From positions 1-50,000 of the forward strand of contig NW_025214726.1 in assembly GCF_004010195.1 (NCBI RefSeq): 50,000 nt of DNA, in the 5' to 3' direction. Below are positions 74 to 48,478 of the stretch, one piece after another. The notes beneath the pieces are model-generated. The model saw only the letters and a list, made by a program, of their open reading frames with translations. It searched no databases and had not been told where the DNA came from. Position 1 is the stretch's first letter. The number at the start of each line of letters is the position of its first letter. The stretch is from Chiloscyllium plagiosum (lineage: Eukaryota). Made by a program: the position numbers and the translations under genes.

Positions 74-281
74 AGCTGAAAATGTGTTGCTGGAACAACG
101 CAGCAGGTCAGGCAGCATCCAGGGGACAGGAGAATCGACGTTTCGGGCATAAGCCCTTCTTCAGGCTTATGCCCGAAACGTCGATTCTCCTGTCCCTTGG
201 ATGCTGCCTGACCTGCTGCGCTGTTCCAGCAACACATTTTCAGCTCTGATCTCCAGCATCTGCAGACCTCACTTTCTCCTC
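74..281. mobile_element. PLE family A short inverted (hairpin) insert
   Basis: Arms 74-155 and 164-245 are near-perfect reverse complements, followed by a ~35-nt tail (ctgatctccagcatctgcagacctcactttctcct). 13-bp TSD atactctgatcat at 61-73 and 282-294. Same sequence as the 3' end of the GIY-YIG-coding copy at 34431-35540. Confidence 0.9.
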
Positions 282-671
282 ATACTCTGATCATACACAG
301 TCTCACTTCTTGGCTTGAATAAGAATCAATACCTCTCTGTTTCTTTTGGACTTCAGCTGCCCTGACAATACATATGCATTCTTTTGGTCTGGTCCTTTAA
401 GGATTGTCGCCTCTGCTTGTTTTTCTCTTATCTGTCCTAAGTGTCAAACACCAGTGCTTTTTTCTTGTGTTTTGGGCTCACCACTTCTGCTTTTTGAATT
501 TGAGGTCTGCATTATCCACATTATGTATAAAATCATAGTACAGAATCTTTGCTGGCCCCACATAAATATTGGCTTATTTTGTTGACTTTCATCCTTGATT
601 TTTTAGATCTTTTTCTTTTTCAAGTGGCTTCCCTTTGTCAGAAATTTTCCCTTTGTGGAGTTTCTTCTGTT

Positions 672-2245
672 TAGAGTCATAGAGTCATAGAAATGTACAG
701 CATGGAAACAGACCCTACGGTCCAACCTGTCCATGCCAACCAGTTATCCGAACCCAATCTAGACCCACTTGCCAGCACCCGGCCTATATCCCCCCAAACC
801 CTTCCTATTCATATACCCATCCAAATGCCTTTTAAATGTTGCAATTGTACCAGCCTCCACCACTTCCTCTGGCAGCTCATTCCATGGGAAAAGACTTTGT
901 CTATTTATCCTATCCATGTCCCTCATGATTTTATAAACTTCTATAAGGTCAGCCCTCAGCCTTCGACGCAGCAGGAAAAAAAACCCCAGCCTGTTCAGCC
1001 TGTCCCTATAACTCAAATCCTCCAGCCCTGGCAACATCCTTGTAAATCTTTTCTGAACCCTTTCAAGTTTCACAACTTCTTTCTGATAGGAAGGAGACCA
1101 GAATTGCACGCAATATTCCTACAATGGCCTAACCAATGCTCTGTAGAACTGCAACATGACCTCCCAACTCCTGTAATCAATACTCTGACCAATAAAGGAA
1201 AGCATACCAAAAGCCTTCTTCACTATCCTATCTACCTGCAACTCCACTTTCAAGGAGCTATGAACCTGCACTCCAAGGTCTCAGTTCAGCAACACACCCT
1301 AGGACCCTACCATTAAGTGTATAAGTCCTTCTAAGATTTGCTTTCCCAAAATACAGCACCTCACATTTATTTGAATTAAACTCCATCTGCCACTTCTCAG
1401 CCCACTGGTCCATCTGATCAAGATCCCGTTGTAATCTGAAGTAACCCTCTTTGCTGTCCACTACACCTCCAATTTTGCTGTCATCTGAAAATTTACTAAT
1501 CATACCTCTTATGCTCACATCCAAATCATTTATATAAATGATGAAAAGGAGTGGACCCAGCACCAATCCTTGTGGCACTCCACTGGTCACAGGCCTCCAG
1601 TCTGAAAAACAACCCTCCACCACCACCCTCTGTCTTCTACCTTTGAGCCAGTTCTGTATCCAAATGGCTAGTTCTCCCTGTATTCCATGAGATTTAACCT
1701 TGCTAATCAGTCTCCCATGGGGAACCTTGTTGAATGCCTTACTGAAGTCCATATAGATCACGTCCACTGCTCTGCCCTCATCAATCCTCTTTGTTACTTC
1801 TTCAAAAAACTCAATCAAGTTTGTGAGACATGATTTCCCACGCACAAAGCCATGTTGACTATCCCTAATCAGTCCTTGCCTTTCCAAATACATGTACATC
1901 CTATCCCTCAGGATTTCCTCCAACATCTTGCCCACGACCGATGTCAGGCTCACTGGTCTATAGTTCCCTCTCTTGTCCTTACCACCTTTCTTAAACAGTG
2001 GCACCATGTTAGCAAACCTCCAGTTTTCCGGCACCTCACCTGTGACTATCAATGATACAAATATTTCTGTAAGAGGCCCAGCAATCACTTCCCTAGCCTT
2101 CCACAGAGTTCTAGGATATACCTGATCAGGTCCTGGGGATTTATCCACTTTCATGCATTTCAAGACATACAGCACTTCCTCCTCTGTAATACGGAAATAT
2201 TTCAAGATATCGCCATCTATTTCCCTACATTCTATATCTTCCATC
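672..2245 (-). mobile_element. CR1 LINE, 5'-truncated; ORF2 RT domain plus 3' end
   Basis: ORF 1258-2442 has RT motifs KSPGPD, NYRPVSLTS, QHGF, DVIYMDFSKAF, GVPQGLVLGPLLF, SKFSDD. The C-terminus (QFWSPSY..KLERVQKRFTRMLPG) is frameshifted. Tail repeat agagtcat x2 at 673-688. Internal deletion near 884 relative to the copy at 41814-42358. Confidence 0.95.
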
Positions 2246-2454
2246 AACCTATTACACATCTTTAGAGCAGGTAGGATTTGAATCGCAGTCTCCAAGTTCA
2301 GAGACAGAAACGCTATCACTGCACGACATGACCCCTTCAGTTTCTGAGTCAATACACTGTGCTGATTTGTAGCATTTTCTGAAATGCTCTTCATTTTCAG
2401 GTCTACCTGCTGGACACTCATTGAGTTTGTGTGTTGACTCAACAGGTTTAGATA

Positions 2455-2675
2455 AAGTCACCATTGTCCTAGAGGGCTGTTCTCCCATTAGACAAAGAGA
2501 GAGAGAGAGATGATTTGTGGTGCTTTAGTCTGAGGGTCATCACACCTCAGGCAAGGGACAAAGTCAAGAAGGTGGAACCTTCATGGTGACCACAACCAGT
2601 GCAGAAATTGAACCCACACTGTTGGCATTGCTCTGCATTGAAAATCAGCAATCCAATCAACTGAATTAAACCAAA
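2455..2675 (-). mobile_element. Degenerate tRNA-derived SINE
   Basis: Minus strand has an A-box-like aattcagttg and a B-box-like gggttcaatttc at tRNA-like spacing, plus a (GA)n/(TC)n tract at 2496-2509. Confidence 0.5.
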
Positions 2676-2884
2676 CCTCTTGTTGGCTTATACCAGAGGT
2701 TAAATATGATAATCTAGTCCATAATATTACTTCCTGCTCTTTTGGCATTTTGGCAGACTTTCAGGAAAGTGACAATGCCACCTTGAGGCTGATCCATCCA
2801 ATTGAATTTCTTCTAAAAATAAACTGATTCCAGGCTCTGACCTCAGCATCAATAGCATATTGAATATTGCATGAGCTTCTCCTT

Positions 2885-3240: not shown

Positions 3241-4057
3241 TGATATTTAGTATTATGCAATGTCTTACTAACTCATCTTTTACATGCCATATCTGTAGCA
3301 TCCAGCTACTGTGTATAAATCTGTGAAAAACACTTCAGTTGATTTCTTTTGGTGCTGGGAGTGTTGATTAAATCTCATTCTCTTTATGGCCACATTCAAC
3401 TTTATACTGAAGTATGTGTCAAATGTTTCAAAATTAAGCTTCTTCTACATCCTGCCCCATAAGGACATCATCAGGTGAGGTGCCAACTGCATACAGAACA
3501 TATGAGCCTGATGCATTTGTTACATTGCCCGCAATCCTGAGGTAGTCCTGTTTCGCTGAAACTGCCACTTCCAGAGCTCCCACTTCTGCCTTCATTGTGG
3601 GTCCTCAGCATTTCAAATTGCTGTACCTCACTGAACTGGGTAATTACTGCAAATGTTTCCCTTCCTTGTTTGAAATCTTCCAATTAATTCTGATTGGCCT
3701 TTGGTATGTTTCCATGATGCTGTTTTGTCTTCAAAGTCTACCAAGGATCTGTTCTTTGGAGATATCTCTCTTTTCTCCATGTGCCTCTTGGGCTGTGATC
3801 TGACTTCACTTCAATGATTTTGAAGTCTCCCTCATTGTCACTTACTCTAACATGGTTCTTGTTCTCAATAGACTTTATGAGCACATTACACCATCTCTTG
3901 TTTCTCTGGCTGTTGGGTGTTCACACTCATTGAGGCTGCTTTATTTTACTAGGCTGTCACTCTTCTTGGTTTCTAAGGCTTTTGCACTCTTTACATTAAT
4001 GTAACACTCTTAATGCACAGATCTATGTTACTAAATACAGCTCTCTAGTGCTGTAAG

Positions 4058-4390
4058 TTAGAACATAGGAGCAGGAGCAGGGCATTCAACCAACAAACTT
4101 ACTCCACCCTTCAATATGAGTAATAGCTGATCATCCAAGAATTACTTTTTTTCCGTGACTTTCCCTATAACCCCTTACTCATATTCTGGAATAAAGAACA
4201 TTCAAGGTTCACAACCTCTGAGTAAATTGCGTCTCCTTGCTTTAGATTTCCAAACCCAGGGAAGCATCTTATCTCCCACCCAGTCTATCCTTTAAAATAT
4301 TTTGTAGGTTTCTTTGGAATCAACTCTCATTCTTTGAAAGTCAAGAGAATACAGACCCTGTTTACCCAAACTCTGTTCATTAGACAAATG
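4058..4390 (-). mobile_element. Old CR1 3'-end fragment
   Basis: agaacataggagcaggagcagggcattcaacc... 3' UTR signature shared with 13075, 15310 and 47301. Confidence 0.6.
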
Positions 4391-5189
4391 TCTCGTGGTT
4401 ATGTCTCAGTCTATATGCAGTGTACTGTAAAAGATGTGTTCATAATATCACTATTCATTCTTAGCATGTGACTTCAGGGTATCAGTGTCTCCTATATATT
4501 ACACTTAATTGGGGCCACAAAATGCAACACATTGGTAAAAGCATAAATATGTGTGAACCTTTCAATACCACTATTCCCATGTCTTGTTCGTTACTGGAGC
4601 TAACATAATCATTGCCACATCAGATACAAATAACCTGCTGAAGACAAAGCCTGCACTGCAGTAGCAGTTCATGTTTAGCAGTGATGGCCAAAAGCCCTGG
4701 ACATCAAAGCAGTCAGAAAATTAAAAGAATAAATTTATGTGAGTGGAGATCTGTAAATTGAACAGCCAGAAGGCACTTCTACTTTCTTTCTGCTTAAATC
4801 TAAGTTATTCTGAAGTTATTTCACTTTTAAAAGAAGACTGTCAGCTTGCTAACCAATTTAAAATAAAAAAGCCAGCCAAAGACTACTCCCACAATTAATT
4901 CAAAGCTCTCCTGAATTGAACACACTACATTTAAAACATTAAAAGCAGTTTTATACAATAACAAGGATTACCTGTGTGAAAACATCAGTTGGTTACACCA
5001 TTTTCTCTCCAAATCAGTGTGAGGTTTCCAGGAAACAACTTTCAGAGAGACTTAGTGAATTAGTAATCACCTCTCGTCCAGGAAAAGCGTTTGTGAAAGA
5101 TCCTCATGACAGGAGAAAGTGTCTTATCATTTTACCTTACTTAAAGATGACCGTAAGCATTAAGCCATAGTGGCAGACCAACAACAATT

Positions 5190-5290
5190 AGAATGAAAGA
5201 AAATGCTGGAGAAACTCAGCAGATCTGGCAGCATCTGTGGACAGAAAAACAGAGGCAATGTTTTGAGTCCAGTGATTCTTCATCAGAACA
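5190..5290 (-). mobile_element. PLE family B 3'-end fragment
   Basis: aatgctggagaaactcagcagatctggcagcatctgtgg...ttcatcagaac matches 14848-15204 and 36208-36463; ends at the hammerhead CTGATGA. Confidence 0.75.
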
Positions 5291-5779
5291 ATTACAATGT
5301 GTTAGGTACAGACAATGCTATTGCTGCAGTCAAGAAGTGCACTTAGCCAACAACAGATGTGGTTTGATGCCACTGTGCAACAGCTGTCCAGAATTTCTTC
5401 TCATCTGAGAAGAACATTGGCATAGATGACAGGACATCTAGTTCCAACAGCTAATCCATACCCTAGAACTAAAGATAGATGACCAATGAGATGCTACAAT
5501 ACTACAATGCTGTCAGCTAGGGAGCTGTGAAGAACTTAAACAAATGCAGAATATTGATGCAGCGCACAAACAACTAAGCAAAAGGCAGTTTTCAGGAGAT
5601 GACCAAGCTTTTCATTTCCTTAACATCAAATACTATATCAATGTATAAGGCAATGCAATGTTTTTAGAACCATTGGCATTATATACTGAAAAGGGAAGAT
5701 AACATTCCGAAAAGCTAAGATAGACAAAGGACATAGTGCCACAACATTACCACTATTCATACTGAAAGACAGGTACTCA

Positions 5780-6570
5780 GCAATAACATTCCACTGTATA
5801 ATGTATGAGAAACCATCTCTCAGCACATATGGACCAACAATTCTGTGTATTGATGGAATTACACTGCAACAGCAATATGTAAGCTCATTGGGACTTTCTG
5901 ATATCTTCTTCATGGCAGATGCCAATGGGCAGGATAACCAGCATACTGTCATAACTCATGAGATTCAAACTGCACCCACTACAGTGGAACAGATTACACA
6001 TGGTGCAATCATATCGGTTGAAGATATTCTCAAAGTTGTTCAGATACATTTTGAGGCGAGTGAGAGTGAACAGTTGCAATTGACAAAGCTAAAATAAGCA
6101 AATACAGAGTTGCAAAAGAACATTTTCCAGGGATGGCCTAATATTAATGAAGTTCCTGAGGACATTTGTTCATTCGACCATGTAGAGAGAAACCTGATAT
6201 TTAGAAGTGCATCATTTTCAAGAGGAAATAGGTCTTAATTTTAAAAAGCAGGTTTTTTTTTAAAGAAAAGCATTCTTTCCTGATGTACTTTGAAGAAAGT
6301 GGTTAAAAAGTGTGGTGCTGGAAAAGTACAGCTGGTCAGGCTGGTCAGGCGGCATCTGAGGAGCAGGATCATATTCCTGATGAAGCTCTTGTGCTCAAAA
6401 TGTTGACTCTTCTGCTCCTTGGATGCAGCCTGACTGGCTGTGTCTTTCCAGCACCACAGTTTTCAACTCTGATCCCCAGCATTTGCAGTCCTCACTTTCT
6501 CCTCGTACTTTGAAGAAAGGCTATCAAATTGCAAAACATTCAAATGTGACACCAGGCAAAGTAGAGTTGA
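5780..6570 (+). mobile_element. Highly decayed Ty3/Gypsy pol relic (RNase H-integrase junction), split by a PLE
   Basis: Colinear frameshifted motifs: EKPSLST, LQQQY..FMADA, PTTVEQI..ILKVVQ, GWPNINEVPEDICSF, IIFKRK*VLI, P..L*RK..QNIQM*HQ. These resemble Gypsy KPL..AP/LQ.Y..ADALSR/GWP...VP/IFKG.RV.IP/IH.GHQG. Confidence 0.6.
6300..6504. mobile_element. PLE family A inverted short insert
   Basis: 15-bp TSD gtactttgaagaaag at 6285-6299 and 6505-6519; inverted arms, decayed CTGATGA core and 3' tail. Confidence 0.88.
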
Positions 6571-7324
6571 AGACCAATATTCTCCCATAGAAGCAGAAAA
6601 AACTGGATGTTTGCACACAGATGGGAAACAGGAGCTGGGTGGGCTTTAGGGTCAGAAACTTGTCTCTGGTAGGAACTTCAGGTTTTCACAAGTGTCAACC
6701 CTTAATTGGGATGGAGACACGTTTCCCACCCACTTAGAGCAAAATGAATGAGGTGGAGCAGGTGGCATTCAGTTCCTTGCAACCATCACAGAGGCTGTCA
6801 GTTGTCAAACAGGAAAGTCTGCTGCGTGTGCCAAAGCCTTCCACGGCATCAGAGAGAAATGAGGTTTCTCAGAAAAGAGCTGAGACAGGAACCTTTCATT
6901 TCATTGATGCCGGCCTGGAATCGATGAGTGGATGTTTAACAGATCGATAGCCATATGTTAAATTAGGCATCAAAACATTTTCTAAAGATTTACATGGGCC
7001 TTATAGTAAATTTGTAGTTTAGCACAAACCCGAGTTTCCACGTTTTCCCCTTCATGACCCTTCTGTCGAGAAGTCAGTATCCAACTGGGGAAGGACCCAG
7101 TACTTTATTTTAGTTTAAACCCATGATCAAATCACCCATTCCATCATATAAACAACAAATTACAACAAACCGCTCTTGTTTGTTTCAAACAGACCTCCAC
7201 CAAATCATTTGTTTCACCAATTAAAAGAGCAATTAATGAGCACTGTCTGTCGGGAAGAATTAAATTAAAATAGAGTGGAAAGGGAGAATGCTGCTCTTTT
7301 TTCAAAATCAAAACTGTTTAACGT

Positions 7325-7408
7325 GCTGTGACACACCTCTGGAGCAGGTAAGATCTGAGCCTAGGCCTCCTGGCTCTGAGGCACTATCAATACACCACAA
7401 AAGCCCCT
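7325..7408 (-). mobile_element. tRNA-derived SINE head fragment
   Basis: Reverse complement gggcttttgtggtgtattgatagt...ggctcagatcttacctgctccagaggtgtgtcac; decayed A/B boxes. Confidence 0.45.
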
Positions 7409-13074: not shown

Positions 13075-13750
13075 AGATAGAAACGTGGAAAATAGGAACA
13101 GAGTCGGTCATTTGTCCCTCTGAACCTACTCCACTGTTCAATATGGTCATGACTGATCATTCAACTCATCATTCTGTTCCCTTTCTCACCATACCCTTTC
13201 TATAGACAGAACATACTTCCTCAGTTAAGAAGATCAAAATTTCACAATTCCAGACAAAAACAGAAATTGTTGGAAAAGTTCAGCAGGACTGGCAGCGTAC
13301 GAGGAAGGGTCACTCATCCCAAAACGGTAACTCTGATTTCTATTCACAGATGCTGCCCGACCTGCTGAGTTTTTCCAGCAATTTCAGTTTTTGACTGACA
13401 CTACAGCATCTGTAGTTCTTGCACAATTCCAAGTCTGGTCTCACTAAGGCTCTACATAACTGCAGCAAGTCACTCCTGTTCCTGTACTTACATTCGCCAC
13501 TTGCTGCAACTGCATGCTTACTTTCAGCACTGGTGTAAAAGGGCACTCAGGTCTCATTGCACCTTCCCCTTTCGCAATCTGTTGCCATTCAGACTAAGTG
13601 GATAACCTTACATTTACCCACATTATACTCCATCTGCCATGCATTTGCCCACTCTCACTGAACTTGTCTAAATCACACTGAAGAATCTTTGCATTCTTCT
13701 CACTGTTCACTCTCCCATCCAGCTTTGTTGTCTGCAAACCTGGAGATAAT
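13075..13750 (-). mobile_element. CR1 3' fragment interrupted by a PLE
   Basis: YRNRSDLLQLCRALVRPDLE motif; 3' UTR at 13075-13200. Confidence 0.75.
13253..13421. mobile_element. PLE family B inverted short insert
   Basis: 10-bp TSD cacaattcca at 13243-13252 and 13422-13431; inverted arms; decayed hammerhead at the junction; tail tacagcatctgtagttctt. Confidence 0.82.
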
Positions 13751-14013
13751 AAACAATACAATTTTGTTCTTGGACATTCCTGGACACTTCATTAATTGAC
13801 AAATCCTCCACATTAAAATTACTGTCCTATGCTAGATTCCGTTCCTTTTTTCACTTACCGCAGCTCTACAGCTTCCAACAAGCCTTCATGTAGGTCCAAA
13901 GAAGGATAAGGGTAATTAGAGGAGAAAGTGAGGTCTGCAGATGCTGGATCACAAAGTTGAAACTTTATTGCTGGAACAGCACAGCAGGTCAGGCAGCATC
14001 CAGGGAACAGGAG

Positions 14014-14049
14014 ATTCGACGTTTCGGGCACAGGCCCTTCTTCAGGAAT
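14014..14049 (-). ncRNA. Minimal hammerhead ribozyme motif (mirror copy)
   Basis: Reverse complement attc CTGAAGA A GGGC-ctgt-GCCC GAAA CGTC gaat. Confidence 0.75.
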
Positions 14050-14085
14050 GTTCCTGAAGAAGGGCCTGTGCCCGAAACGTCGAAT
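14050..14085 (+). ncRNA. Minimal type-I hammerhead ribozyme motif (PLE-type)
   Basis: gttc CTGAAGA A GGGC-ctgt-GCCC GAAA CGTC gaat. Stem I gttc/gaat, stem II 4 bp, palindromic ACGT stem III; predicted cut after C14081. Activity is inferred. Confidence 0.75.
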
Positions 14086-14847
14086 CTCCTGTTCCCTGGA
14101 TGCTGCCTGACCTGCTGTGCTGTTCCAGCAATAAAGTTTCAACTAAGGGTAATTAGATGATAGTGTCACTCTAGGTTCTCCATTTGAACATGAAGCCAAT
14201 GATGCTCAAATTTAATTTGCATGTACTTTTACGATGATGCAAAATTGTGACATGATATAGATTTTCATCTAAATATGTCAAGCTAGCAATTGTCAAAAGC
14301 TACATGACATTTTGAACTAGCCAAAAAACACTGACAAGGCGGAAACATTAAGTATAGACACACAAATTGTAGTTATACTCAAAGTGCAATTGACACATGA
14401 GCCTGACATAATGTAGGCTGCAGGTGTAACATTCTATTGTATCTATAATGTAAATACAAACCTATAAATTATGAGGAGGTTGCCTCATTTCTTGTAGAGA
14501 AAGTTTAGGTTGCTGAATTGGTACATTCATTTGCTAGTGCTGATAATATTACCTCATAAATAGCATTTTTAAAATTTGTACTTTATTGATGAAACAAATC
14601 CATGGTTTGCTCATTAATGGTTTTACCACCAGCATTGTAGACGAGATTTGTGAATTTTAATTAGATTTATGACAGATTCCCCACCAATTGGTGCAAAAGA
14701 TGACATTTGTTTTCATTTGTCTTTTTCTCTGAAAACCTTAATTTTAAAATGAGCGGTTTAATTTAAAATTACACATTTTTAAAATGAATATGCACTTAGG
14801 GATTTTGTTCTTGATTTTGGCTCCCAAAATGTCATGTGTTACTTCAT

Positions 14848-15204
14848 AAACAAAAACAGAAATTGCTGGGAAAACGCAGCAGGTCTGGCAGCATCTGTAG
14901 AGAGAAAGCAGAGTTAACATTTCGAGTTCAATTACCCTTCTTCAGAATTGATTGTAGGTGGAAAAGGATGGTACATACACTGTATACTGAAATTGGGTTG
15001 GGAGAGTGGGGCGGAGTAAACAATAGGTGGAGATGAAGCCCACAAAGAGAGAACAGCAGTTGGACAGACAGAGGAAACAGTAAAAGTCAGCCTGAGAGAA
15101 TGAATAGATGCTAATGAGGACCACTAGTAGCCGAAAATAGGATGATTGTGGTAGCAGCCCATGTGATGACAAGGCCTTGTGTGTGGAGTTAAGGTGAGGA
15201 CTGG
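14848..15204 (-). mobile_element. PLE family B 3' portion
   Basis: 13-bp TSD tgtgttacttcat/tgtattacttcat at 14835-14847 and 15205-15217; colinear with 29011-29307 plus 31110 onward. Confidence 0.85.
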
Positions 15205-15789: not shown

Positions 15790-16310
15790 AAGAACCATTG
15801 GGCTGGTCCATCTTGTGCACAAGATTAAATGTTCCAGCCAGCTGTGACAGGGAACCAATTAACCAATTGGTCCAGATCAGATTTCAGTCAATGGTAGCCC
15901 TCAGGAAATTGACAGTGTGGGATTCAGCAATAGAATGGCAAGCGGAGATAATTACTGCTTCACTCATTGGAAGCCCTGCCTGGCACTTGTGTGGCACGAT
16001 TTTTACATGCCAATTATCAACACAAGCCTGAATGTTACCCAGGCCTTGTTTCATATGGACACTAGATTAGAGTGGTGCTGGAAAAGCACAGCAGGTCAGG
16101 CAGCATCCAAAGAGCAGGAAAATCGACGTTTCGAGCAAAAGCCCTTCTGATGAAGGAGTTTTTCCCGAAACGTCGATTTTCCTGCTCCTCGGGTGCTGCC
16201 CTACCAGCTGTGCTTTTCCAGCACCACTCTAATCTAAACTCTGGTTTCTAGCATCTGCAGTCCTCACTTTTGCCTTCACATGGACACTGGCTATTTCCAT
16301 ATCTGAGGAG
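15790..16310 (-). mobile_element. Decayed CR1/L2-group LINE (second family) fragment, split by a PLE
   Basis: Reverse complement resembles 34190-34428 (ctcagatactgaagcagtccatg..caggcttgg..accattg). Confidence 0.55.
16064..16274. mobile_element. PLE family A inverted short insert
   Basis: 14-bp TSD ttcatatggacact/ttcacatggacact at 16050-16063 and 16275-16288; arms meet at cccttCTGATGA; 3' tail present. Confidence 0.9.
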
Positions 16311-23026: not shown

Positions 23027-23221
23027 CATGATTTGGAGATGCCAGTGTTGGACTGGGGTGTACAAAGTTAACAATCATACAACAAGTCTATTTGGAAGCA
23101 CTGGCTTTTGGAGCGCTGCTCCTTCACCGTCACAACCACCTGATGAAGGAGCAGTGCTCCGAAAGCTAGTGCTTCCAAATAAACCTGTTGCACTATAACC
23201 TGGTGTTATGTGATTTTTAAC
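23027..23221. mobile_element. PLE family C inverted short insert
   Basis: 13-bp TSD ttgcttcactaat at 23014-23026 and 23222-23234; tail plus inverted arms; homologous to 45917-46119. PLE assignment is inferred from architecture and the hammerhead. Confidence 0.8.
23137..23171 (+). ncRNA. Minimal hammerhead ribozyme motif (family C)
   Basis: cac CTGATGA A GGAGC-agt-GCTCC GAAA GCTA gtg. Stem I cac/gtg, 5-bp stem II, palindromic AGCT stem III, CUA cleavage triplet. Confidence 0.72.
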
Positions 23222-24260: not shown

Positions 24261-24859
24261 AAGATTAAAAATTGAAGAGCAGAAAGAGTGGAAGGATTGT
24301 TGACACCATTAGGTGAAGCAGATTGCATGGATGGAAACTCATATGGAGCAATAATACTGATGTGCCAAATGGTGTGTTTCTGTGCTGTAAGTACTCTGTA
24401 ATTGTGTAATGCAATTTCAGAGACTCTATTGAGCTGGTTAAATTTGTGGAAGTGTCATAGTAGTTCCTGTCAGTGAGGTTCATTTCTCCTTTAAATTGCA
24501 AGCTACAGCAGTTTATTGCAGAAACCATGTACCATTTTGGACTCAGACAATCTAAATTCTTGTCCCTTTAGTTCTTTCCTGATCTCTCTATAAGATGGTA
24601 TGAAAAACAAAATATACTCTGTTCATGAAGCTAATTCAACCCAGTCTGCCTTTACAATCATAATAGCATAAAAATGTTCACAAGGAGCAACAAAAGAAAT
24701 CTCTTAATACCAATTACTTGAAATAAGAAACTAATTTAGTGAGTGTTTCAAGCTAGGATACTGTAATGAATATTGATATGGGTGTGGATATAGTGAGCAG
24801 TTTAGGTTACAAGTTTTAGCTCATAGAGATGGATAATAGATATGGGCCAGGTCAGAATA

Positions 24860-24950
24860 TAAAACAAAAACAGAAAGGGCAGGAGAAAGGCAACAGGACT
24901 GGCATCATCTATGGAGAGAGAAACAAATAACTTTTCAAGTCCAGAATACA
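24860..24950 (-). mobile_element. Decayed PLE family B end
   Basis: aaaacagaaagggcaggagaaaggcaacaggactggcatcatctatggagagagaaac. Confidence 0.55.
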
Positions 24951-29000: not shown

Positions 29001-29384
29001 TTAAGAAAATCATAGAACTGCAGAAACTGAAAATCTGAACCAAAAACAGAAACTCAGCAGATCTCGCAGCATCTGCAGAGTGAAAGCAGAGATAGCGTTT
29101 CAGGTCTAGTGATCCTTCTTCAGAACTGGTTGTAGCTAGGAAAAGGTTGCCATATATATGAAAAACAAGGAGTGATGGGGCAATGCAGGAGGAGTATGGG
29201 ATAGGTAGAGATAGAGTCCAGAGAGAAAGACCACCAGTAGGCAGTCATAGACAAAGGAATGGGTAATGGTGAGCCAGGAAGAAGAGAAAAAAGCTGATAA
29301 AAGGAATCATAAGTCATATAGCCACAGAGATATACAACACCAAAACAGATCCTTTGGTCCAACTTGTCCATGCCAACCAGATAA

Positions 29385-29559
29385 GAGCTGAAAATGTGTT
29401 GCTGGAAAAGCGCAGCAGGTGAGGCAGCATCCAAGGAACAGGAGAATCGACGTTTCGGGCATAAGCCCTTCTTCAGGAATGAGGAAAGTGTGTCCAGCAG
29501 GCTAAGATAAAAGGTAGGGAGGAGGGACTTGGGGGAGGGGCGTTCGAAATGCGATAGGT
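29385..29559 (-). mobile_element. PLE family A 3' end nested in the CR1 3' UTR; hammerhead core intact at 29445-29481
   Basis: CR1 ccagata|tcctaac is interrupted; reverse complement cattc CTGAAGA A GGGC-ttat-GCCC GAAA CGTC gatt. Confidence 0.88.
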
Positions 29560-29732: not shown

Positions 29733-29797
29733 AGGGTAAAAACAATGACTGCAGATGCTGGAAACCAGATTTTGGATTGGTGGTGCTGGAAGAGCTT
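29733..29797 (-). mobile_element. 65-bp PLE tail insert nested in CR1
   Basis: 15-bp TSD cctgaaaaagttgcc/cctgaaaaatttgcc at 29718-29732 and 29798-29812; matches the tail of 16064-16274. Confidence 0.85.
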
Positions 29798-29870: not shown

Positions 29871-29996
29871 ACTCCCCCACCCAGGAATATACCTTGTCTA
29901 TTTATCCTATCCATGCCCCTCATGATTTTATAAACTCCCCCACCCAGGAAAAGACCTTGTCTATTTATCCTATCCATGCCCCTCATGATTTTGTAA
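29871..29996. repeat. ~62-bp tandem duplication inside CR1
   Basis: actcccc(c)acccagga..ccttgtctatttatcctatccatgcccctcatgatttt occurs twice. Confidence 0.9.
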
Positions 29997-32192
29997 ACCT
30001 CTATAATGTCACCCCTCAGCCTCTGATGCTCCAGGGAAAACAGCCCCAGCCTATTCAGCCTCTCCCTATACCTCAAACTCTCCAAACCTGGCAACATCCT
30101 TGTAAATTTTTTCTGAATCCTTTCAAGTTTCACAACATCCTCCCAATAGGAGGGAGACCAGAATTGCACACAATATTCCAAAAATGGTCTAACGAATGTC
30201 CTGTACAGCTGCAAAACTCCTGTACTCAGTGCTCTGACCAATAAAGGAAAACATACCAAATGCTTTTTCACTATCCTATCTACCTGTGACTCCACTTTCA
30301 AGGAGCTATGAACCTGCACTCCAAGATCTCTTTGTTCAGCAACACTCACTAGGACCTTACCATTAAGTGTATAAGTCCTGCCCTGATTTGCCTTTCCAAA
30401 ATGCAGCACCGCACATTTATCTAAATTAAACTCCACCTGCCCCTCCTCAGCTCATTGGCCCATCTGATCAAGGTCCCATTGTACTCTGAAATAACCTTCT
30501 TCATTGTCCACTACACTTCCAATGTTTGTGTAATCTGCAAATTTGCTATCTATGCCTCTTATGTTCACATCCAAATCATTTAAATAAATGGCAAAAAGCA
30601 GTCCACCCAGCACTGATCCTTGAGGCACACCACTGGTGACAGGCCTATAATCTGAAAAACAATTATCCTCCACCTTCCATCTTCGAGCCAGTTCTGTATC
30701 CAAATGGCAAGTTTTCCCTGTATTCCATGAGATCTAACCTTACTAACCAGTCTATCATGAGGAACCTTGTCGAATGCCTTACTTAAGTCCATATAGATCA
30801 TATCCACACTCTGTCCTCATCAATCCTCTTCGTTACTTCTTCAAAAAACTCAATCAAGTTCATGAGACATGATTTCCCATGCACAGAGCCATGTTGACTC
30901 TCCCTAATCAGTCCTTGCCTTTCCAAATGCATGTAAATCCTGACCCTCAGGATTCCCTCCAAAAGCTTGCCCACCACTAATGTCAAGCTCATTGAACTAT
31001 AGTTCTCTTGCTTTTCCTAACCACCTTTCTTAAATAGTAGCAACACGTTAGCCAATCTCCAGTCTTCCGGCACCTCACCTGTGACTATTGATGATACAAA
31101 TATCTCAGCAAGTGGCCCATATCATGACAGGGCCAGGCATGTGAGGATGGATAAAGGACATGAAAGAAAGTATCCTAGCCCTAAAATTATTGAACTCAAT
31201 ACTGAGTCCTAAAGGATGTGTGGTCCCCAAGTGGAAAATAAGATGTTGTTCTTCCATATTGCACTGAGCCTTGCTGCAGCGCTGCAGTCTGAGACAGCGT
31301 TGTTGGTCAGGGAACATGATGGTGCATTGAAGTAGCAGAGAACTGGAAGCTCAGGGTAATTTTTGTGGACAGAACATAGGTGTTCGACAAACGTCTTGGG
31401 CACACATTCATATGAAACTCTAGCACCTGCTACAGTCAAAATGCATCTGCCATTTTAGAAATGCAGACTAGCTTTAAGCAGTGCAGGCTAGCACAAATGT
31501 TAGTTATCCTTTCATAATTTTTCAAAAGCAATGGCTAAGTATTTCAATCATTTAAAAAAGCAAGAAACACAAAGATTGCCTTTTACCTGTAGGTCATGGG
31601 GTTCATGATCCATGATTATTCTATGTGTGTTTTCAGGCTTCATCAAATTTAGACACTAACTTTATAGTTTGTTTTACGAGAGTGATAGAAGCAACACTTT
31701 TCCAGGCACATTAAAATCAGGTTATGTATGTTTGAAAATGAAATTGTTTCAGTACTTAAAGTCTAATGTAGATCTTTACATTGTCTGAACATGTTCTTCA
31801 TTACATTTCTAACAATGGTCTTTCAGCACGCTCTCACTGCATGTAACTAATTGTATATTTTGGTAAACTGGGGGCTAGGAACAGTTCTTTCCATTAACAT
31901 AAGTTATCAATACCAAATTAGGAGGGTAAACTGATTATTTTCCTTGGCCCACTCCTCCATTGGTTGCTACAAAGTTTGTATTTAAGAAGGGAGGTGCAAT
32001 AATCAGTCATATCGAAAAGAAGGCAACCAAGATTTTTATGCAACAAACAAAGATCCAGTTTTATTTTTAACAGACAAAACTTATGCAAGCAATGATAATA
32101 AAAGGCTTCGACTTATACGCTCATGCGCTCATAAACGCGCACACATTACAACACTGCAAAAATAAAAATAATTCAACAGAAATTTACCTTAA

Positions 32193-32341
32193 TCAAAAAG
32201 TGTGGTGCTAGAAAAGCACAGCCAGTCAGGCAGCGTCTGAGGAGCAGGAGAATTGACGATGCTGCCTGACCGGTTGTACTTTTCCAGCACCACACTTTTT
32301 GACTCTGATTTCCAGCATCTGCAGTCCTCACTTTCTCCTCA
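32193..32341. mobile_element. PLE family A inverted insert with the centre (hammerhead) deleted
   Basis: Inverted arms plus tail; imperfect TSD aaatttaccttaa/aaatttctcttaa at 32180-32192 and 32342-32354. Confidence 0.82.
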
Positions 32342-34129: not shown

Positions 34130-34428
34130 AATCCAATTGACATTGTTATAACTGTTCAGATATATGTGCTACAACAGATGATTACACAATGTTCAGCAGC
34201 ATTCATGACTCCTCAGATACTGAAGCAGTCCATGTTCAGTAAAACTCTGATAACATCCAGGCTTGGAATAATAACATTTGTAACATTTGTACCATGCATC
34301 TGCCTGTCAATGACCATCTCAAGAAAGAAAGAATCCATCATCTCCTGACATTCAATGGTTTTACCATTGCTGAATTCTCATTAAAATCCTGGGGACTACC
34401 ATTCAATAGAAACTAAAATGGACCAAAG
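34130..34428 (+). mobile_element. CR1/L2-group LINE (second family) fragment; its 3' end resumes at 35555-35610
   Basis: Decayed ADD-like motif (acagatgattacacaatgttcagc), ILGTTI.RN-like motif; 3' end gggcaataag..ccacatgccatgaatgaataaaa. Confidence 0.6.
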
Positions 34429-34430
34429 TT

Positions 34431-35540
34431 TAGACCAGAGTGATGCTGGAAAGGCACAGCAGGTCAGGCAGCATCCAAGGAGCAGGAAATCAATGTTTCA
34501 GGCAAAAGCCCTTCATCAGGAATGGAGGAAGGGAGCCTCCAGGGTGGGGAGATAATGGGTGTGTGTGTGTGTGTGTGTATGTGTGGGTATGTGTGTGTGT
34601 ATGTGTGTGTGTGTGTGTGCGCGTGTGCTGGGGAGAAGGTAGCAAAGAGTACAATAGGTGAATGGGGGTGGGGATGAAGGTGATAGGTCAGAGAGGAGGA
34701 TGGAGTGGATAGGTGGGAAGGGAGATTGGCCGGTAGGACGAGTCATGAGGACAGTGCTGAGCTGGAAGGTTGGAAATGGGGTAAAGTGGGGGGAGGGGAA
34801 ATGAGGAAACTGGTGAAGTTCACATTGATACCCTGGCGTTGAAGTGTTCTGAGGCGGAAGATGAGGCGTTCTTCCTCCAGGTTTTGGTGGTAAGGAGCGG
34901 CGGTGGAGGAGGCCCAGGACCTGTATGTCCTTGGCACAATGGGAAGAGGAGTTGAAATGTTGTGCCATGGGGCGGTGGGGTTGTTTAGTGTGGGTATCCC
35001 GGAGATGTTCCCTGAAGTGCTCTGCAAGGAGGCGTCCAGTCTCCCCAATGTAGAGGAGACCGCATCGGGAGGAACAGATACAACAAATGACATTGGTGGA
35101 TAAGTAGGTGAAACTTTGATGGATTTGGAAGCCTCCTTTTAGGGCCTTGGATGGAGGTGAGGGAGGAGGTGTGGGCGCAGGTTTTGCAATTCATGTGGTG
35201 GCAGAGGAGGGTTCCAGGACAGGGGTGTGTGTTGTTGGGGGGAGTGGACCTGACCAGGTAGTCACGGAGGGAACAGTCTTTGCGGAAGGCAGAAAGGGGT
35301 GGGGAGGGAAATAGATCCCTGGTAGTGGGGTCTGTTTGGAGGTGGCGAAAGTGTCGGCGGATGATGCGGTTAATGCGAAGGTTGGTAGGGTGGAAGGTGA
35401 GGACCAGGGGGGTTCTGTCCTTGTTACGGTTGGAGGGTGGGGTTTGAGGGCGGAGGTGCAGGATGTGGATGAAATGCGTTGGAGGGCATCTTCAACCACG
35501 TGGGAAGGGAAATTGCGATCTCTAAAGAAGGAGGCCATCT
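34431..35540 (-). mobile_element. Penelope-like retroelement family A, 5'-truncated: linker, GIY-YIG endonuclease and 3' end
   Basis: MASFFRDRNFPSHVVEDALQRIS, NCKTCAH, STNVICCICSSRCGLLYIGETGR (35032-35100), AQHFNSSSH, LEEERLIFRLRTLQRQGINVNF; frameshifted. CpG-decayed hammerhead at 34487-34524. Confidence 0.93.
34558..34627. repeat. (GT)n microsatellite inside the PLE 3' UTR
   Basis: About 35 imperfect GT units. Confidence 0.95.
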
Positions 35541-35984
35541 TGTCAAACGGAACTAAATATGGGCAATAAGTGACCAGTGACGTCCACATGCCATGAATGA
35601 ATAAAAGATCTTGTAGCCACTTGCCCTGAAATGGTCCCCCACTGGCACATCTACTTACCTGACTTTATTCATTAAAATTACATCCAGCAGTTCCCCCTCT
35701 CTTGTAGGACCTCCTACATGCTGCCTTAAAATACCATCCCAGAAATATTTTAAGAAATCCAATCACTCTAAACCTTTCACACTTTGTCTGCCCAGTTAAT
35801 ATTGGGGAAATTGAAATCTTCATCTGCGTGCCTGTGTTTTTCATCTTTCATGAGGCTTCTGGTTTACTTTGATGTAAGTAGACCTCTACTGGTCAGCTGT
35901 CCATTCTGGTCCCACCAGCTGAAAAGAATATCCGATGGGATCAACCTCCTGCAGTTTTTGTGGTCTGAAATTATGCTCTATGGA

Positions 35985-36715
35985 CTTCAGAGGTTAAGTT
36001 AGGAGGAGAGCTTATACAAATTCTGCCAGTTAAATCTAGAACGTAGAAGGTCAAGAGAAGATCTGGTTGAAGTCTTCAAGGTATTAACAGGAAAAGTCAG
36101 GGTAGATATAAATAATATAATAATATTTCCACTGATTGGGGATTCAAGAACTAGGGGCATAGTCTGAGAATTAGGACTAGTCTGTTCAGGAAAGATGTGA
36201 GGAAGCAAAAACAGAAGTCGCTGGAAAAGCTCAGCACTTCTGGCAGTATCTGTAAAGAGAAATCAAACTTAACATTTCGGGTCCGGTGACCCTTCCTCAG
36301 AACTGATGGTAGCTTGGAAAATGTCATTTTGCATGCAGAAGATAGGGTGGGGGCAGGGGTTGAGGAGTAATCAATAGGTATGAATAAAGCCCAAAGAGAG
36401 AAAAAAAGGGTTGGACAGACAAAGGAGTCAACAAGGATCTGCATGGGAGGGTGGAGACTGTTCATGTTAGGAAGCACTTCTACACGCAAAGGATAGTAAA
36501 TGTTTGGAACTCTTCTACAGACAACTTTGGATGCTGAATCAGTTGTTTTTTTATTGTTGTAGACAGATTCTTTTTGTTGTTAAGCAAAAGGTTTCAGTTT
36601 TTGTTTAGGGAAATGGGTCAAAGGCAGGTGTATGGAGTTAAGCCAGAGATCAGCCATGATCTCATTGAATGGCACAATAAGCTCAAAAAGCTGAATAGCT
36701 TTCTCTCCTATCTTG
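35985..36715 (+). mobile_element. CR1 3' end interrupted by a PLE
   Basis: gatctggttgaagtcttcaag, agaactaggggcatagtctgaga (TRGH), and 3' UTR gatcagccatgatctcattgaatgg. Confidence 0.85.
36208..36463 (-). mobile_element. PLE family B 3' portion
   Basis: 13-bp TSD atgtgaggaagca/atgttaggaagca at 36195-36207 and 36464-36476; hammerhead gtt CTGAGGA A GGGTC-accg-GACCC GAAA at about 36270-36305. Confidence 0.88.
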
Positions 36716-44878: not shown

Positions 44879-45056
44879 AAAACTGAAAGAACTACTGATG
44901 CTGTAAGTCAGAAACTAAAACAGAAGTTGCTGGCAAAGTTCAGCAGGTCTGGCAGCATCTGTGAAGAGAAATCAGAGTTAACTTTTATGGGTCCAGTGAC
45001 TCTTCATCAGTGCTGCCAGACCTGCTGACTTTCTCAGCGAGTTCTGTTTTTGTTCA
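44879..45056. mobile_element. PLE family B inverted short insert
   Basis: Tail plus an arm ending at cttcatcag (hammerhead CTGATGA), then the inverted arm tgctgccagacctgctga..ttctgtttt. TSD degenerate. Confidence 0.8.
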
Positions 45057-45319: not shown

Positions 45320-46339
45320 TTCACATATTGTATTTTCCATTTATCCCCAAAAGACCTCTAGTAATAATGACATAAATGATGTGACAAAAAAAATCTAGCA
45401 ACAATTCCTTGTGACAGACAGTGTTGTTTTCCTTGACATTTCATTGAGATCACCTCAGGGATATTTCTGAGATAAATAATTGTAGCCATTGTTTTTCTGT
45501 ATTTGTCAGTTTTCCAGTTAATATGACTAAATTATTATAAAAGTATTTATTGGCAAGATGTGGAATGTCTCAAACAATTAAAGGCACAGTGTTCATCACT
45601 TTCTGGTGGAGCAGGCAGAGAAATGTGGTCTTGTTTGCATGACACTGTGATGTCCTAATTTGGTCACTGGTGATGGCAATCTATTTTTGGTAACCACCAA
45701 ATTATCTGAGAAATATCAAAAATATCACATATTCCTTTTGTGTTTAGACAATAGGTCTTTACATATGAAAAGGTGATAGAAACCTTTAATGTGGTAAACA
45801 TGGATTTCCAGAAGATATTTGATAGAGTGTCACAAAACAGACTTGTGAGGAAAGTTACAGGTTTTGGAACAGTAGCAACATGGATACAAAATTGGCTGAG
45901 TGACAGGAAGTAGACATGATTCGGAAATGCCAGTGTTGGACTGGGGTGTACAAAGTTATAAATCACACAACACCAGGTTATAGTCCAACAGGTTTAATTG
46001 GAAACACACTAGTTTTCGGAGCGACGCTCACAATCACCTGATGAAGGAGTGTCGCTCTGAATGCTAGCGTGTTTCCAATTAAACCTGTTGGACTATAACC
46101 TGGTGTTGTGTGATTTTTAAGGAAGTAGACAGTAATGGTCAATGAATATTTTTTGTGCTGTTGGATGGTTTTAGTAAGTTCCCCAGGGCTCAGTATTGGC
46201 CTGAAGTGATCTCAATGAAATGTCAAGGAAAACAACACTGTCTGTCACAAGGAATTGGTTGCTGGATTTTTTTGTCACATCATTTATGTCTTTATTACTA
46301 GAGATCTTTTGGGGATAAATGGAAAATACAATATGTGAA
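45320..46339. repeat. 140-bp inverted duplication (45320-45459 vs 46200-46339)
   Basis: The two segments are reverse complements with about 5-6 differences; the right copy interrupts a CR1. Confidence 0.92.
45917..46119. mobile_element. PLE family C inverted short insert
   Basis: 12-bp TSD aggaagtagaca at 45905-45916 and 46120-46131; inverted arms; mutated hammerhead cac CTGATGA A GGAGTGTCGCTCT GAAT GCTA. Confidence 0.82.
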
Positions 46340-46455
46340 AAATGTATCTTCTCCTGATTTATGTTAATGATAGATTAATGATCTGGATCTTGGAATGCAA
46401 GAAATAATTTAAAAGTTTGCTAATGACATTAAACTTGGAAGAATTGTGAACTGTG

Positions 46456-46811
46456 GGGTAGCACGGTGGCTCAATGATTAGCAATGCTCTCTCACAGGGC
46501 CAGGGACCCAGATTCAATTCAACCTCAGGCGACTGTCTGTGTGGAGTTTGCACATTCTCCCCTTGTCCGCATGGGTTTCCTCCAGGTGTTCCGGTTTCCT
46601 CCCACAGTCCAAAGATGTGCAGGTTGGGTGGACTGGCCATGCTAAATTGCTCATAGTATCCAGGGTGTGGAGGCTAGGTAGATTAGCCACAGGAAATGCA
46701 GGATTGTAAGGTATGCAACAGGTCTGGGTGGGATGCTCTTTGGAGGGTTAGTGTGAACTAGATGGGCTGAATAGCTTGTTTCCACACTGTAAGGATACTA
46801 TGATTCTATGA
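46456..46811 (+). mobile_element. HE1-like V-SINE
   Basis: gcacggtggctcaatgattagc head, V-domain, atgattctatg tail. Confidence 0.92.
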
Positions 46812-47300
46812 GAGTTTAAAACTCCAACAGGAACATAGATAAGTTGGTGTAGGTAGTAAATGAGCATCAATACAGAGAAGTCTGAGATGGTGCACCTTGG
46901 TCAGAAGAACACTGAAAGATAATTTAAATGTTTGATACAATTCTAAAAGGGGTGCAGGAGCACAGGCAGCCCAGGGGTATATGTGCAAAAGTCATTGAAG
47001 ATGACAGAACAGATGGAGAGAGCAGTAAATAAAGCATACAGTTTTCTTAGCGCTATGAATAGGGACATAGCATAGACCAATTCTAGGTGCCACATTATGG
47101 GAAAGGTTTGAATTAGAGAGAATGCAGAGGCGATTTGTAAGAATGGTTCCAGAAATGAAAACCTTCAGTTATGAGGATAGACTGAAGAAATTGGGACTAA
47201 TCTCCACAGAGAGGAGAAGACTAAAAGCAGGTTTGATAAAAGCTTTCAAAATCATGAGCTGACTGGATAGAGTAGATAGGGAGAAGCTGTTCTTCGTAAT

Positions 47301-48280
47301 AAGACCATAAGACATAAGAGCATGGCCATTCATCCATCAAGTCTGCTCCACCATTCAATCATGGCTGATCATTTTCTCATCCCCATTCTCCTGCTTTTTG
47401 TCCTTGATACTCAAAAACCTATCTCTCTCAGTCTTAAATATACTCAATGACCTGGCCTCCACAGCCTTCTGTGGCAAAGAATTCCATAGATTCACCACTC
47501 TCTAGCTGAAGAATTTTCTCCTTTCCTCCATTCTAAAAGATCTTCCCTTTACTCCAAGGTTATGCCCTCAGGTCCTAGTCTCTCCTACCAACAGAAACAT
47601 CCTCCCAACATCCACTCTGTCAAGGCTATTCAGTATTCTGTATGTTTCAATTGGATCCCCCATCATACTTCTAAACTTTATTGACTAGAAACCCAGAGTC
47701 CTCAAATGTTCCTCATATGTTAAGTTTTTCATTCCTGAAACCACTCCACTAAACATGCTCCAAGGCCAATATATACTTCTTTAGATATGGGACCCAAAAC
47801 CGCATAAAATATTCAAACTGTTGTCTTACCAGAGACTTATAGAATCTCAGAAGTACATCCCTGCTTTTATATTCAAGTCCTCTCAAAATAAATGCCATCA
47901 TTACATTTGCCTTCCTAACTACTGACTCAACTTGCAAGTTTACTTGAGAGAATCCTGGACTAGAACTCTTAAGTCTCTTTGCACTTCAGACTTTTGAATT
48001 TTCTCCCCATTTAGAAAATAGTCAATGCCTCTATTCTTCCTACAAAAGTGCATGACCTCACACTTTCCCACATTGTATTCCATCTGCCACTTCTTTGCCC
48101 ACTCTTCTAACCTGTCCATATCCTTCTGCAGCCTCCTCGCCTCCTCAATGCTACCTGTCCCTCTAGCTATCTGCAAACATAGCCAGAATACCCTCAGTTC
48201 CTTTGTTAATCGTTTATGCATGAAGTTAAAAGTTGTGATCCCAATACTGAGACTTGCGGAACACCACTTGTCACCAGCTG
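47301..48280 (-). mobile_element. CR1 3' portion
   Basis: RRLQKDMDRLEEWAKKWQMEYNVGKCEVMHF, RGLEYKSRDVLLRFYKSLVR; aagaccataagacataag tail. Confidence 0.92.
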
Positions 48281-48478
48281 CATTCTCAGCTACCTTCCCC
48301 CAGCCCCACCCTCCCTCCCATTTATCTCTCAGACCCCCGGCCCACAAGCCTCATTCCTGATGAAGGGCTTATGCCCGGAATGTGATTCCCCTGTTCCTCG
48401 GAAGCTGCCTGACCTGCTGTGCTTTTCCAGCACCACACTCTCGACACTGATCTCCAGTATCTGCAGTCTTCACTTTTT
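48281..48478 (+). mobile_element. PLE family A 3' end with tail
   Basis: cattc CTGATGA A GGGC-ttat-GCCC ggaa (mutated core), followed by the common arm and the tail ctgatctccagtatctgcagtcttcactt. Confidence 0.85.

Follow-up and report, generated by a model that had tools for sequence, protein, structure and literature searches.

Three families of minimal hammerhead ribozyme (A, B and C) are scattered over the first 50,000 nucleotides of contig NW_025214726.1 from Chiloscyllium plagiosum (the window), where they sit in end modules of Penelope-like elements (PLEs). At a probability of about 0.85, we read them as minimal type-I hammerheads of PLE end modules that are selected in source elements, with scattered copies that are dead on arrival and 5' ends that are most simply explained by run-off of the reverse transcriptase (RT). 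The window and the mapped reads yield the motif itself, the linkage of family A to PLEs, target-site duplications (TSDs), a single tail per fold-back of two head-to-head arms, a pile-up of 5' ends and a pattern of decay.

Hammerhead motifs in the window

Both strands of the window were scanned with a minimal-hammerhead descriptor, and the counts were compared with those of 200 dinucleotide shuffles. The sequence CUGANGA, followed by a stem II of 3 bp or more and then by GAAA, occurs at 9 sites, against a shuffle mean of 0.37 (maximum 3 in 200). The full motif, defined as this core plus the palindromic 15.2-16.2 pair, UH and a stem I of at least 2 bp, occurs at four sites (14054+, 14045-, 29476- and 23140+) and in none of the 200 shuffles. 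The scan bears out a sequence-only reading of the window that had placed hammerheads of one fold in three Penelope families. All motifs cited in that reading were found at their places: the majority lie on the minus strand (14014-14049, 29445-29480, 133-165, 36267-36304, 29090-29127, 14912-14949 and 44976-45010) and the rest on the plus strand (14050-14085, 13301-13332, 23137-23171 and 46035-46069). Rfam covariance models gave 17 matches at E up to 10, none of them to a hammerhead family and all of them to miRNA-like hairpins with scores under the gathering threshold. The Rfam hammerhead models require helix III.

Sixteen arms with a recognisable CUGANGA-A-stem II-GAAA core were read position by position; 4 cores are intact and 12 are damaged. 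A type-I core (CUGANGA ... GAAA ... UH, with stem II closed by G10.1-C11.1) fits the majority sequence of all three families. The extra A between positions 9 and 10.1, which had been claimed for every copy, is indeed present in all 16 core-bearing arms and also in two marine-metagenome contigs, L001 and L002. The helix III palindrome had been described as invariable, which is true of the family consensuses only: ACGT or AGCT is complete in 6/16 arms and in none of the six of family B, whose majority is ACGT. The incomplete palindromes mostly differ from ACGT or AGCT by CpG-type or single changes.

The three families share one fold with stems that differ in sequence yet pair, and that part of the earlier claim stands, while the individual sequences given for it need correction. 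The stem I 3' strand GAAT, assigned to family A, is seen only in 14014/14050, the two arms of one insertion; the strand is GATT in 4/8 arms (164, 16147, 29476 and 34519), which therefore have a U.U mismatch in stem I, and it is decayed in 2/8. The motif at 133-165 lacks the 5' strand of stem I, the family B motif is intact in 0/6 arms and exists only as an inferred consensus, and the family C core at 46035 has GAAT in place of GAAA and a broken stem I. The 14014/14050 pair has a stem I of 4 bp and family C one of 3 bp; in most family A arms it consists of 2 bp, a U.U mismatch and 1 bp, and in family B it is complete in 0/6 arms. Across the majority sequences of A, B and C, in that order, pair 2.1-1.1 reads C-G, U-A and C-G; pair 2.2-1.2 reads U-A, U-A and A-U; pair 2.3-1.3 reads U.U or U-A, G-C and C-G; and positions 15.2-16.2 read CG, CG and GC. 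Stem II is one pair longer in families B and C. The covariation between families amounts to a handful of events over three lineages, and an automatic alignment fell out of register.

Carrier elements

Family A is tied to PLEs by the copy at 34420-35541. Its open reading frame (ORF) has carpet-shark proteins as top relatives (Chiloscyllium at 81-84%, Rhincodon and Stegostoma; 6 matches among 133 candidates), and the piece at 34694-35541 matches protein P0001 by tblastn (E 5e-51), with the Chiloscyllium RT/GIY-YIG relative 81% identical. Among the related proteins, GIY-YIG domains were matched in P0001-P0003 and P0005 and RVT_1 in P0001, P0002 and P0004; the GIY-YIG match of the window piece itself is weak (E 0.037). 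A zinc-finger-like linker lies between RT and endonuclease (EN), as CHHMNCKTC in 34988-35491 and CHRRNCKTC in P0001. The available sections of Craig et al. (2021, PMC8557442) describe a CX2-5CxxC linker between RT and EN as the mark of the Neptune clade, and the CxxxxCxxC linker points to family A as a Neptune-type, endonuclease-bearing (EN+) PLE. The C-terminus of the Stegostoma protein P0003, LMKGLRPKRQ, appears by eye to be a translation through the same motif (compare LMKGFCLKH). Family B has a downstream module in common with family A (75%, E 3e-5).

For family C, the search pattern matched two marine-metagenome contigs, L001 (967-1001) and L002 (1331-1365), in which 33/35 nt are identical to the motif at 23137-23171. 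Agreement extends to the four bases past the search pattern, with which UH and stem I are complete; the contigs have no other match to the window, and their flanks are unalignable. L002 carries a GIY-YIG-type ORF (E 2e-18 to P0002) without a Pfam match of its own, and L001 an inverted RT piece; the AGCU type is therefore PLE-borne in another host too. AATAAA occurs shortly 3' of the hammerhead in both contigs. The family A pattern had no match in viral contigs.

Insertions and their architecture

Self-comparison and a TSD search gave 18 insertions with an end module (9 fold-backs, 3 short singles and 6 long copies), in agreement with the earlier estimate of about 18 copies, plus one ORF-only remnant at 31180-31448. 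Arm starts are numbered relative to C3, so that in the copy used as reference 29476 is C3 and 29480 is A(-4). The insertions and motifs are as follows.

75..281: family A fold-back; left arm (minus, tailless) from -1 of C3, right arm (plus, tail) from +9; 14-bp TSD at 61-74/282-295
133-165, minus strand: hammerhead motif of this fold-back, without the stem I 5' strand
5196..5289, minus strand: family B single arm; core decayed (C3 5286); start about -3, with microhomology overlap with its own 13-bp TSD
6300..6504: family A fold-back; right arm from -4 (decayed core, C3 6377, tail), left arm from about +33; 15-bp TSD
13253..13421: family B fold-back; right arm from +2 (damaged core, tail), left arm from +53; 10-bp TSD
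13921..14143: young family A fold-back, 99% self-complementary over 190 bp; arm starts -5 and -3; 14-bp TSD
14014..14049, minus strand: intact family A minimal hammerhead; stem I 4 bp, stem II 4 bp, ACGU, predicted cut after GUC
14050..14085, plus strand: intact family A minimal hammerhead, antisense partner of the motif at 14014..14049
14845..15100, minus strand: family B long copy; core CpG-decayed (C3 14945); upstream extension of about 155 nt
16064..16274: family A fold-back; arm starts +5 and 0; stem II broken in the core at 16147; 14-bp TSD
23027..23221: family C fold-back; arm starts +4 (tail) and about -8 to -10; 13-bp TSD
23137..23171, plus strand: intact family C minimal hammerhead; stem I 3 bp, stem II 5 bp, AGCU, predicted cut after CUA
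24858..24943, minus strand: old family B remnant; start about +15; TSD unconvincing
29040..29283, minus strand: family B long copy; core decayed (C3 29123)
29379..29552, minus strand: family A long copy, reference for read mapping
29445-29480, minus strand: intact hammerhead of this copy, the only intact motif outside fold-backs; predicted cut 29449/29448
29733..29797, minus strand: family A tail-only insertion of 65 bp; start about +62 to +65, ribozyme absent; 15-bp TSD
31180..31448, minus strand: decayed remnant of a PLE GIY-YIG domain; end module not seen
32193..32341: coreless family A fold-back; arm starts +24 and about +45; 13-bp TSD with 2 mismatches
34420..34523, minus strand: end module (family A) of the copy with the ORF; core at 34519; palindrome decayed to ACAT
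34694..35541, minus strand: frameshifted 3' part of a putative Neptune-type PLE ORF (RT thumb, CxxxxCxxC linker, GIY-YIG); the hammerhead follows after about 175 nt
36202..36426, minus strand: family B long copy with the best-preserved B core (C3 36300); palindrome decayed to ATGT
44884..45054: family B fold-back; arm starts 0 (tail) and +52; TSD weak (7/8)
45917..46119: family C fold-back; arm starts +9 (tail) and about -8 to -10; damaged core 46035-46069 (GAAT); 12-bp TSD
48293..48476, plus strand: family A long copy with tail; core decayed (C3 48357)

A clear TSD of 10-15 bp flanks 8/9 fold-backs, 2/3 short singles and 0/6 long copies, and the tail is on one arm only in all nine fold-backs. 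A one-sided tail with a TSD is expected because, in the PLE papers cited below, RT starts at two internal sites and both target strands prime. The junctions differ among all nine fold-backs; the joints were therefore made anew at each insertion.

The 5' ends of copies

Among 27 arms, 21 have a located 5' end, with 14 in the interval -11..+9 of C3, 7 further 3' and none in -60..-12, and 6 continue upstream. The clustering (rate ratio 12.6, p 4e-8) is to be read knowing that the interval was picked after the data were seen and that the arms of one insertion are not independent. The positions of arm ends were entered by hand; one was 5 nt off, which left its class unaffected. The family C arms opposite the tail begin at about -8 to -10, and the window holds no long family C copy.

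Four sequencing runs were mapped to the family A copy (29360-29570) at 80% likeness, which aligned 66,764 and 57,895 DNA contigs of two species, 2346 RNA reads of run X21 and 0 reads of run X22; summed contig depth over the copy does not equal copy number. Depth falls from the motif to 29488-29495 by 6.6-fold in RNA and 3.8-6.0-fold in DNA. Among the best 18 of 624 loose ends, the leading one on the upstream side is 29480 (-4) in both DNA runs, and hence both species (381 and 369 contigs, mixed AT-rich consensus), followed by 29479, 29481 and 29484. Seven joints to the opposite strand are listed, all with one side at 29475-29484 and the other at 29468-29469 (3), 29444-29446 (3) or 29435 (1). 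The predicted cut, 29449/29448, is not the main end; a minor cluster of joints lies at most 4 nt away from it, none exactly there. An inversion joint at 29468/29480, from the base of stem II to -4, recurs in both species and in the RNA reads.

The Initiator has the consensus YYANWYY. In 6/6 long copies of families A and B, stem I begins with the A at -4, and this base forms the A of an Initiator-like motif (29480, 34523, 48353, 36304, 14949 and 29127); elsewhere upstream, YYANWYY has 9 further matches in 705 nt. The consensus of loose ends at 29480 starts with C in both DNA runs and with A in the RNA run, and 3/4 of the listed joint rows from 29480 begin with C. The C is at most a hint of a cap-derived extra G. 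Run-off at a transcription start at -4 would be the simplest reading of the pile-up of ends. Clustering of 5' ends at stem I was not found in the available portions of the PLE literature, although Fig. S2 of Frangieh 2024 and Lunse et al. might contain it.

The tail helix

The tail of the module pairs with positions +43..+58, as GGAUGCUG with CAGCAUCU in family A, ACAGAUGCUG with CAGCAUCUGU in family B and UGUUGGACU with AGUCCAACA in family C. The helix has 7-10 bp in tail-bearing arms (such as 196-281, 13344-13421 and 45917-45990), is unrelated in sequence between family C and families A and B, and in the latter two encloses a conserved UGCUG/CAGCA hairpin. It is part of the minimum-energy fold in 5/10 tail-bearing arms, and in 5/10 at most 26 of 500 shuffles reach it; no excess over shuffles was seen in L002 (185/500) or in several decayed arms. 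RNAalifold on 7 arms of families A and B returned a helix of 9 pairs, six with one-sided changes and none with two-sided ones; two-sided changes within families A and B were seen in 0/16 pairs. We regard the helix as a candidate for recruiting the RT, and it shows that constraint extends beyond the ribozyme.

Selection on source elements and decay of copies

The pattern of read variation separates constrained from free positions of the ribozyme. Among the best 40 of 121 differences, the non-CpG changes within the motif that exceed 4% of depth in one or both DNA runs affect N7 and three loop II positions, that is 4/6 free positions, and 0/24 core and stem positions (Fisher p 5e-4). Two positions were set aside in this test, namely 29446 (3.3% and 0.2%), where the change restores the 2.3-1.3 pair, and 29475 (0.1-0.2% in DNA and 24% in one RNA orientation). 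The core CpG bases C11.1, G12, C15.2 and G16.2 are each altered in 8-13% of DNA depth. We take these patterns to mean that source elements are under purifying selection and that inserted copies decay neutrally. The sequence-only reading had taken covariation to imply selection on the ribozyme, and had named an excess of core conservation over the flanks as a test. The excess is marginal, with 0/24 positions varied in core and stems against 9/57 in the 3' flank (p 0.05), and the constraint is not special to the ribozyme because the module 3' of it is about equally constrained. The claim of selection fits source elements, in which the motif appears to be kept since that of family C is near-unchanged in another host's PLE with unalignable flanks; nothing indicates selection for the host.

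The RNA reads show T>C changes at 29420, 29503 and 29508 (14-22% in one orientation, against 0.1-2.7% in DNA). They could reflect A-to-I editing of fold-back double-stranded RNA, but the strand bias is not diagnostic, as the non-editing changes 29475 A>T and 29449 G>A show an equal one. Lizard Penelope is described as heavily edited in the sections available of PMC5625713.

State of the inserted motifs

The sequence-only reading had also suggested a very large genome-wide load of ribozyme motifs, which does not hold for working ribozymes. Three of the four intact motifs lie in head-to-head fold-backs and pair with their own antisense arm, and read-through RNA of a fold-back folds into a long hairpin (-93 to -206 kcal/mol in the five folded). 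Twelve of 16 cores are damaged, and single minimal motifs were inactive, with dimers of low activity, in vitro (Cervera and De la Pena 2014, PMC4209133, as far as available). The genome-wide load therefore consists mainly of dead motifs. A cis dimer between the two arms of one fold-back was ruled out, as their motifs are on opposite strands, and no head-to-tail pair able to form a cis dimer was found within the window. The Anolis PAc motif needs a protein to cleave, according to the accessible text of Frangieh et al. (2024, PMC11167929).

Proposed mechanism and alternatives

The motifs would belong to an end module of about 130 nt (a pseudo-long terminal repeat, pLTR, plus the tail) of endonuclease-bearing PLEs in a carpet-shark-type genome. 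In source elements, the ribozyme most likely cuts after GUC, GUU or CUA only as a dimer, formed by the 5' and 3' pLTRs in one transcript, or with the aid of the element's own protein, and cleavage would trim the element RNA. The scattered copies are presumably dead-on-arrival insertions. The protein would begin reverse transcription at two internal sites, one at the end of the tail and one some 35 nt further in; a staggered cut would offer both of its strands as primers, giving the 10-15-bp TSD, and the two cDNAs would be joined head to head. Most cDNAs would end at the 5' edge of the ribozyme, most simply since uncut template RNA starts there, and the inserted motifs would then decay by CpG mutation or become sequestered by the antisense arm. 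Dimer or protein dependence, both-strand priming and two internal starts have been shown in papers for other PLEs; for the sharks, we infer the transcription start at -4 and cleavage in vivo.

Several observations weigh against this account. The read tables behind it cover the best-supported rows, the depth step upstream of the motif is partly due to subfamilies with other upstream sequence (loose ends 29481 and 29484), and the interval of end clustering was chosen as stated above. No RT/GIY-YIG ORF in the window is linked to families B or C. When units beginning at the 5' edge were folded, stem II had a pairing probability of 0.81-1.0 and stem I one of at most 0.14 (4 units). A double hammerhead is no stabler than two monomers (-13.1 versus 2 x -7.1, -9.3 versus 2 x -5.2 and -16.3 versus 2 x -8.1 kcal/mol), and dimers other than the double hammerhead are more stable by nearest-neighbour energies. 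Finally, RNA run X21 shows no pile of read starts or ends, which a library of this kind is not expected to show.

It is very improbable that the scattered motifs are working ribozymes of relevance to the host, which cut introns or read-through RNAs and were selected after insertion. In its favour, poly(A) RNA is rich in the module (2346 of 12.96 million records, in both orientations, 97% continuing into unlike sequence), and the intact motif 29445-29480 lies outside any fold-back; the damaged cores, the 8-13% of changed core CpG bases, the antisense pairing of 3/4 intact motifs, the lack of a head-to-tail pair in the window and the published inactivity (PMC4209133) or protein dependence (PMC11167929) of single minimal motifs, as reported in the available text, all speak against it. 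That the palindromic units form a separate non-autonomous family, similar to miniature inverted-repeat transposable elements (MITEs) or retrozymes and amplifying as whole hairpins, is quite improbable. The units are TSD-flanked and 150-225 bp long, and a few joints (29468/29480) recur in both species, but no junction is common to two window copies, the arms are plain PLE 3' ends that continue into long copies and the ORF, and retrozymes are tandem rather than inverted repeats in the part of 10.64898/2026.07.22.740005 available. MITE-like amplification was rejected on the differing junctions.

The remaining alternatives concern the origin of the ends. If the ribozyme produced the 5' ends of short copies, the template would be the 3' cleavage product, which is unlikely. 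It is in keeping with the second side at 29444-29446 in 3/7 listed opposite-strand joints, with 5/12 rows of the joint table (kind of joint unstated) at 29446-29449, at most 4 nt from the predicted cut, and with window arms starting at +24 (one) and about +33 (one). Cleavage was rejected as the main source of ends, however. The main pile lies some 30 nt 5' of the cut, neither a window arm nor a listed joint starts exactly at 29448, and 14/21 arms retain sequence 5' of the cut; cleavage can account for a minority of ends at most, and stalling at the fold's 3' edge would give the same picture. A more serious possibility, although with the odds distinctly against it, is that the pile-up at -4 reflects not a transcription start but RT pausing or microhomology where the ribozyme folds, or else short master copies whose 5' end is fixed. 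Joints recur at 29468-29469, the 5' base of stem II, in both species, several window copies have junction microhomologies of 1-4 nt, and the Initiator-like motif, being short and overlapping with stem I, could be preserved by pairing alone. Yet a polymerase coming from the 3' side reaches the fold at +31, not at -4, the junctions differ in 9/9 fold-backs and were hence made anew per insertion, and the A of YYANWYY is at -4 in 6/6 long copies although the A and B stems differ and stem I of family A is usually mismatched.

The run-off account can be extended tentatively, at somewhat less than even odds, to a self-contained template: transcription of the 130-nt module would start with the first nucleotide of stem I, the 5' strand of which would also serve as Initiator, and the tail helix would recruit RT to run off the capped 5' end. 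If true, this would account for a genome flooded with copies one ribozyme long, and short copies could spread non-autonomously; the hammerhead would act as a decapping switch by cutting off the first 32 nt, and joints near the cut site would be a record of germ-line cleavage. A start at stem I would unite promoter, ribozyme and RT start signal in one module and offer a direct test of the role of the ribozyme. The many TSD-flanked copies are a natural record of template RNA starts and of prior cleavage. Ribozyme mutants of a PLE insert normally in vitro, and Naiads are not known to carry the hammerhead motif.

Other repeats in the window

A 399-aa open frame at 1258-2457 (minus strand) has an RVT_1 domain (E 1e-32) and is 84% identical to 29947-31119; it belongs to a LINE-type repeat with several more pieces in the window. 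A dispersed repeat family of 200-350 bp occurs at 10081-10426, 18374-18669, 36780-37089, 46455-46811 and 49611-49764. An inverted pair, 45315-45459/46200-46344 (146 bp, 95% identity), flanks the family C fold-back at 45917-46119. A 40-bp near-perfect palindrome at 38247-38286 has no relation to the PLE modules.

Comparison with known systems

One of the closest known systems is PAc, a Poseidon element of Anolis, as described in the available sections of Frangieh et al. (2024, PMC11167929). Downstream of its hammerhead lie two internal RT start sites, which delimit a tail of 30-40 nt; both target strands are cut and extended, no RNA-seq ends lie at the cut site, and the ribozyme is dispensable for insertion, as in the picture drawn here. 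Insertion is normal in ribozyme mutants, and the template is mainly uncut RNA. A similar helix can be seen by eye around the AC-rich stem-loop of the Anolis template. PAc is of the Poseidon clade, with an ORF that starts in stem II, whereas family A appears to be Neptune-type, and cleavage of PAc has been shown to be protein-assisted.

The EN+ PLEs in the accessible parts of Arkhipova et al. (2013, PMC3846280) and Craig et al. (2021, PMC8557442) also have a head-to-head inverted, 5'-truncated copy, a one-ended tail and Initiator-like motifs in the pLTR. Their TSDs are about 8-10 bp, against 10-15 bp here, and the fold-backs in the window differ in that both arms are usually shortened to 45-130 nt. 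Penelope of Drosophila virilis has a TATA-less internal Initiator promoter in the pLTR, which is comparable (Schostak et al. 2008, PMC2377424, in the text available). In that element a 75-bp intron lies 46 bp past the start and ends at helix I, which places the start some 120 nt 5' of the ribozyme; the start proposed here would be the base that opens stem I. Non-LTR retrozymes (Li et al. 2026, 10.64898/2026.07.22.740005, in the part available) are PLE-derived, hammerhead-bearing and non-coding, and are reported in one chondrichthyan. They are defined by head-to-tail tandem units, none of which occur in the window, where all paired motifs are inverted.

The motifs themselves agree with the minimal hammerheads of Cervera and De la Pena (2014, PMC4209133), of which the available text describes type I, no loop 3, a palindromic 15.2-16.2 pair, a short stem I, an extra nucleotide between 9 and 10.1, G10.1-C11.1 and several covarying families per genome, mostly as single motifs of truncated PLEs with some opposite-strand pairs. 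Stem II has 4-5 bp here and 7-8 bp in Schistosoma. Coelacanth and Xenopus have thousands of minimal hammerheads per genome; the density of 16 cores per 50 kb here is far over the 4,000-9,000 per genome of that paper if the window is typical. Shark minimal hammerheads were not found in the accessible text or in supplement file 2 (file 1 was unsearchable), nor was a report of end clustering of copies in that text. Covarying families, the extra nucleotide, the palindrome and huge numbers were thus already published in 2014, and the present finding extends them to sharks.

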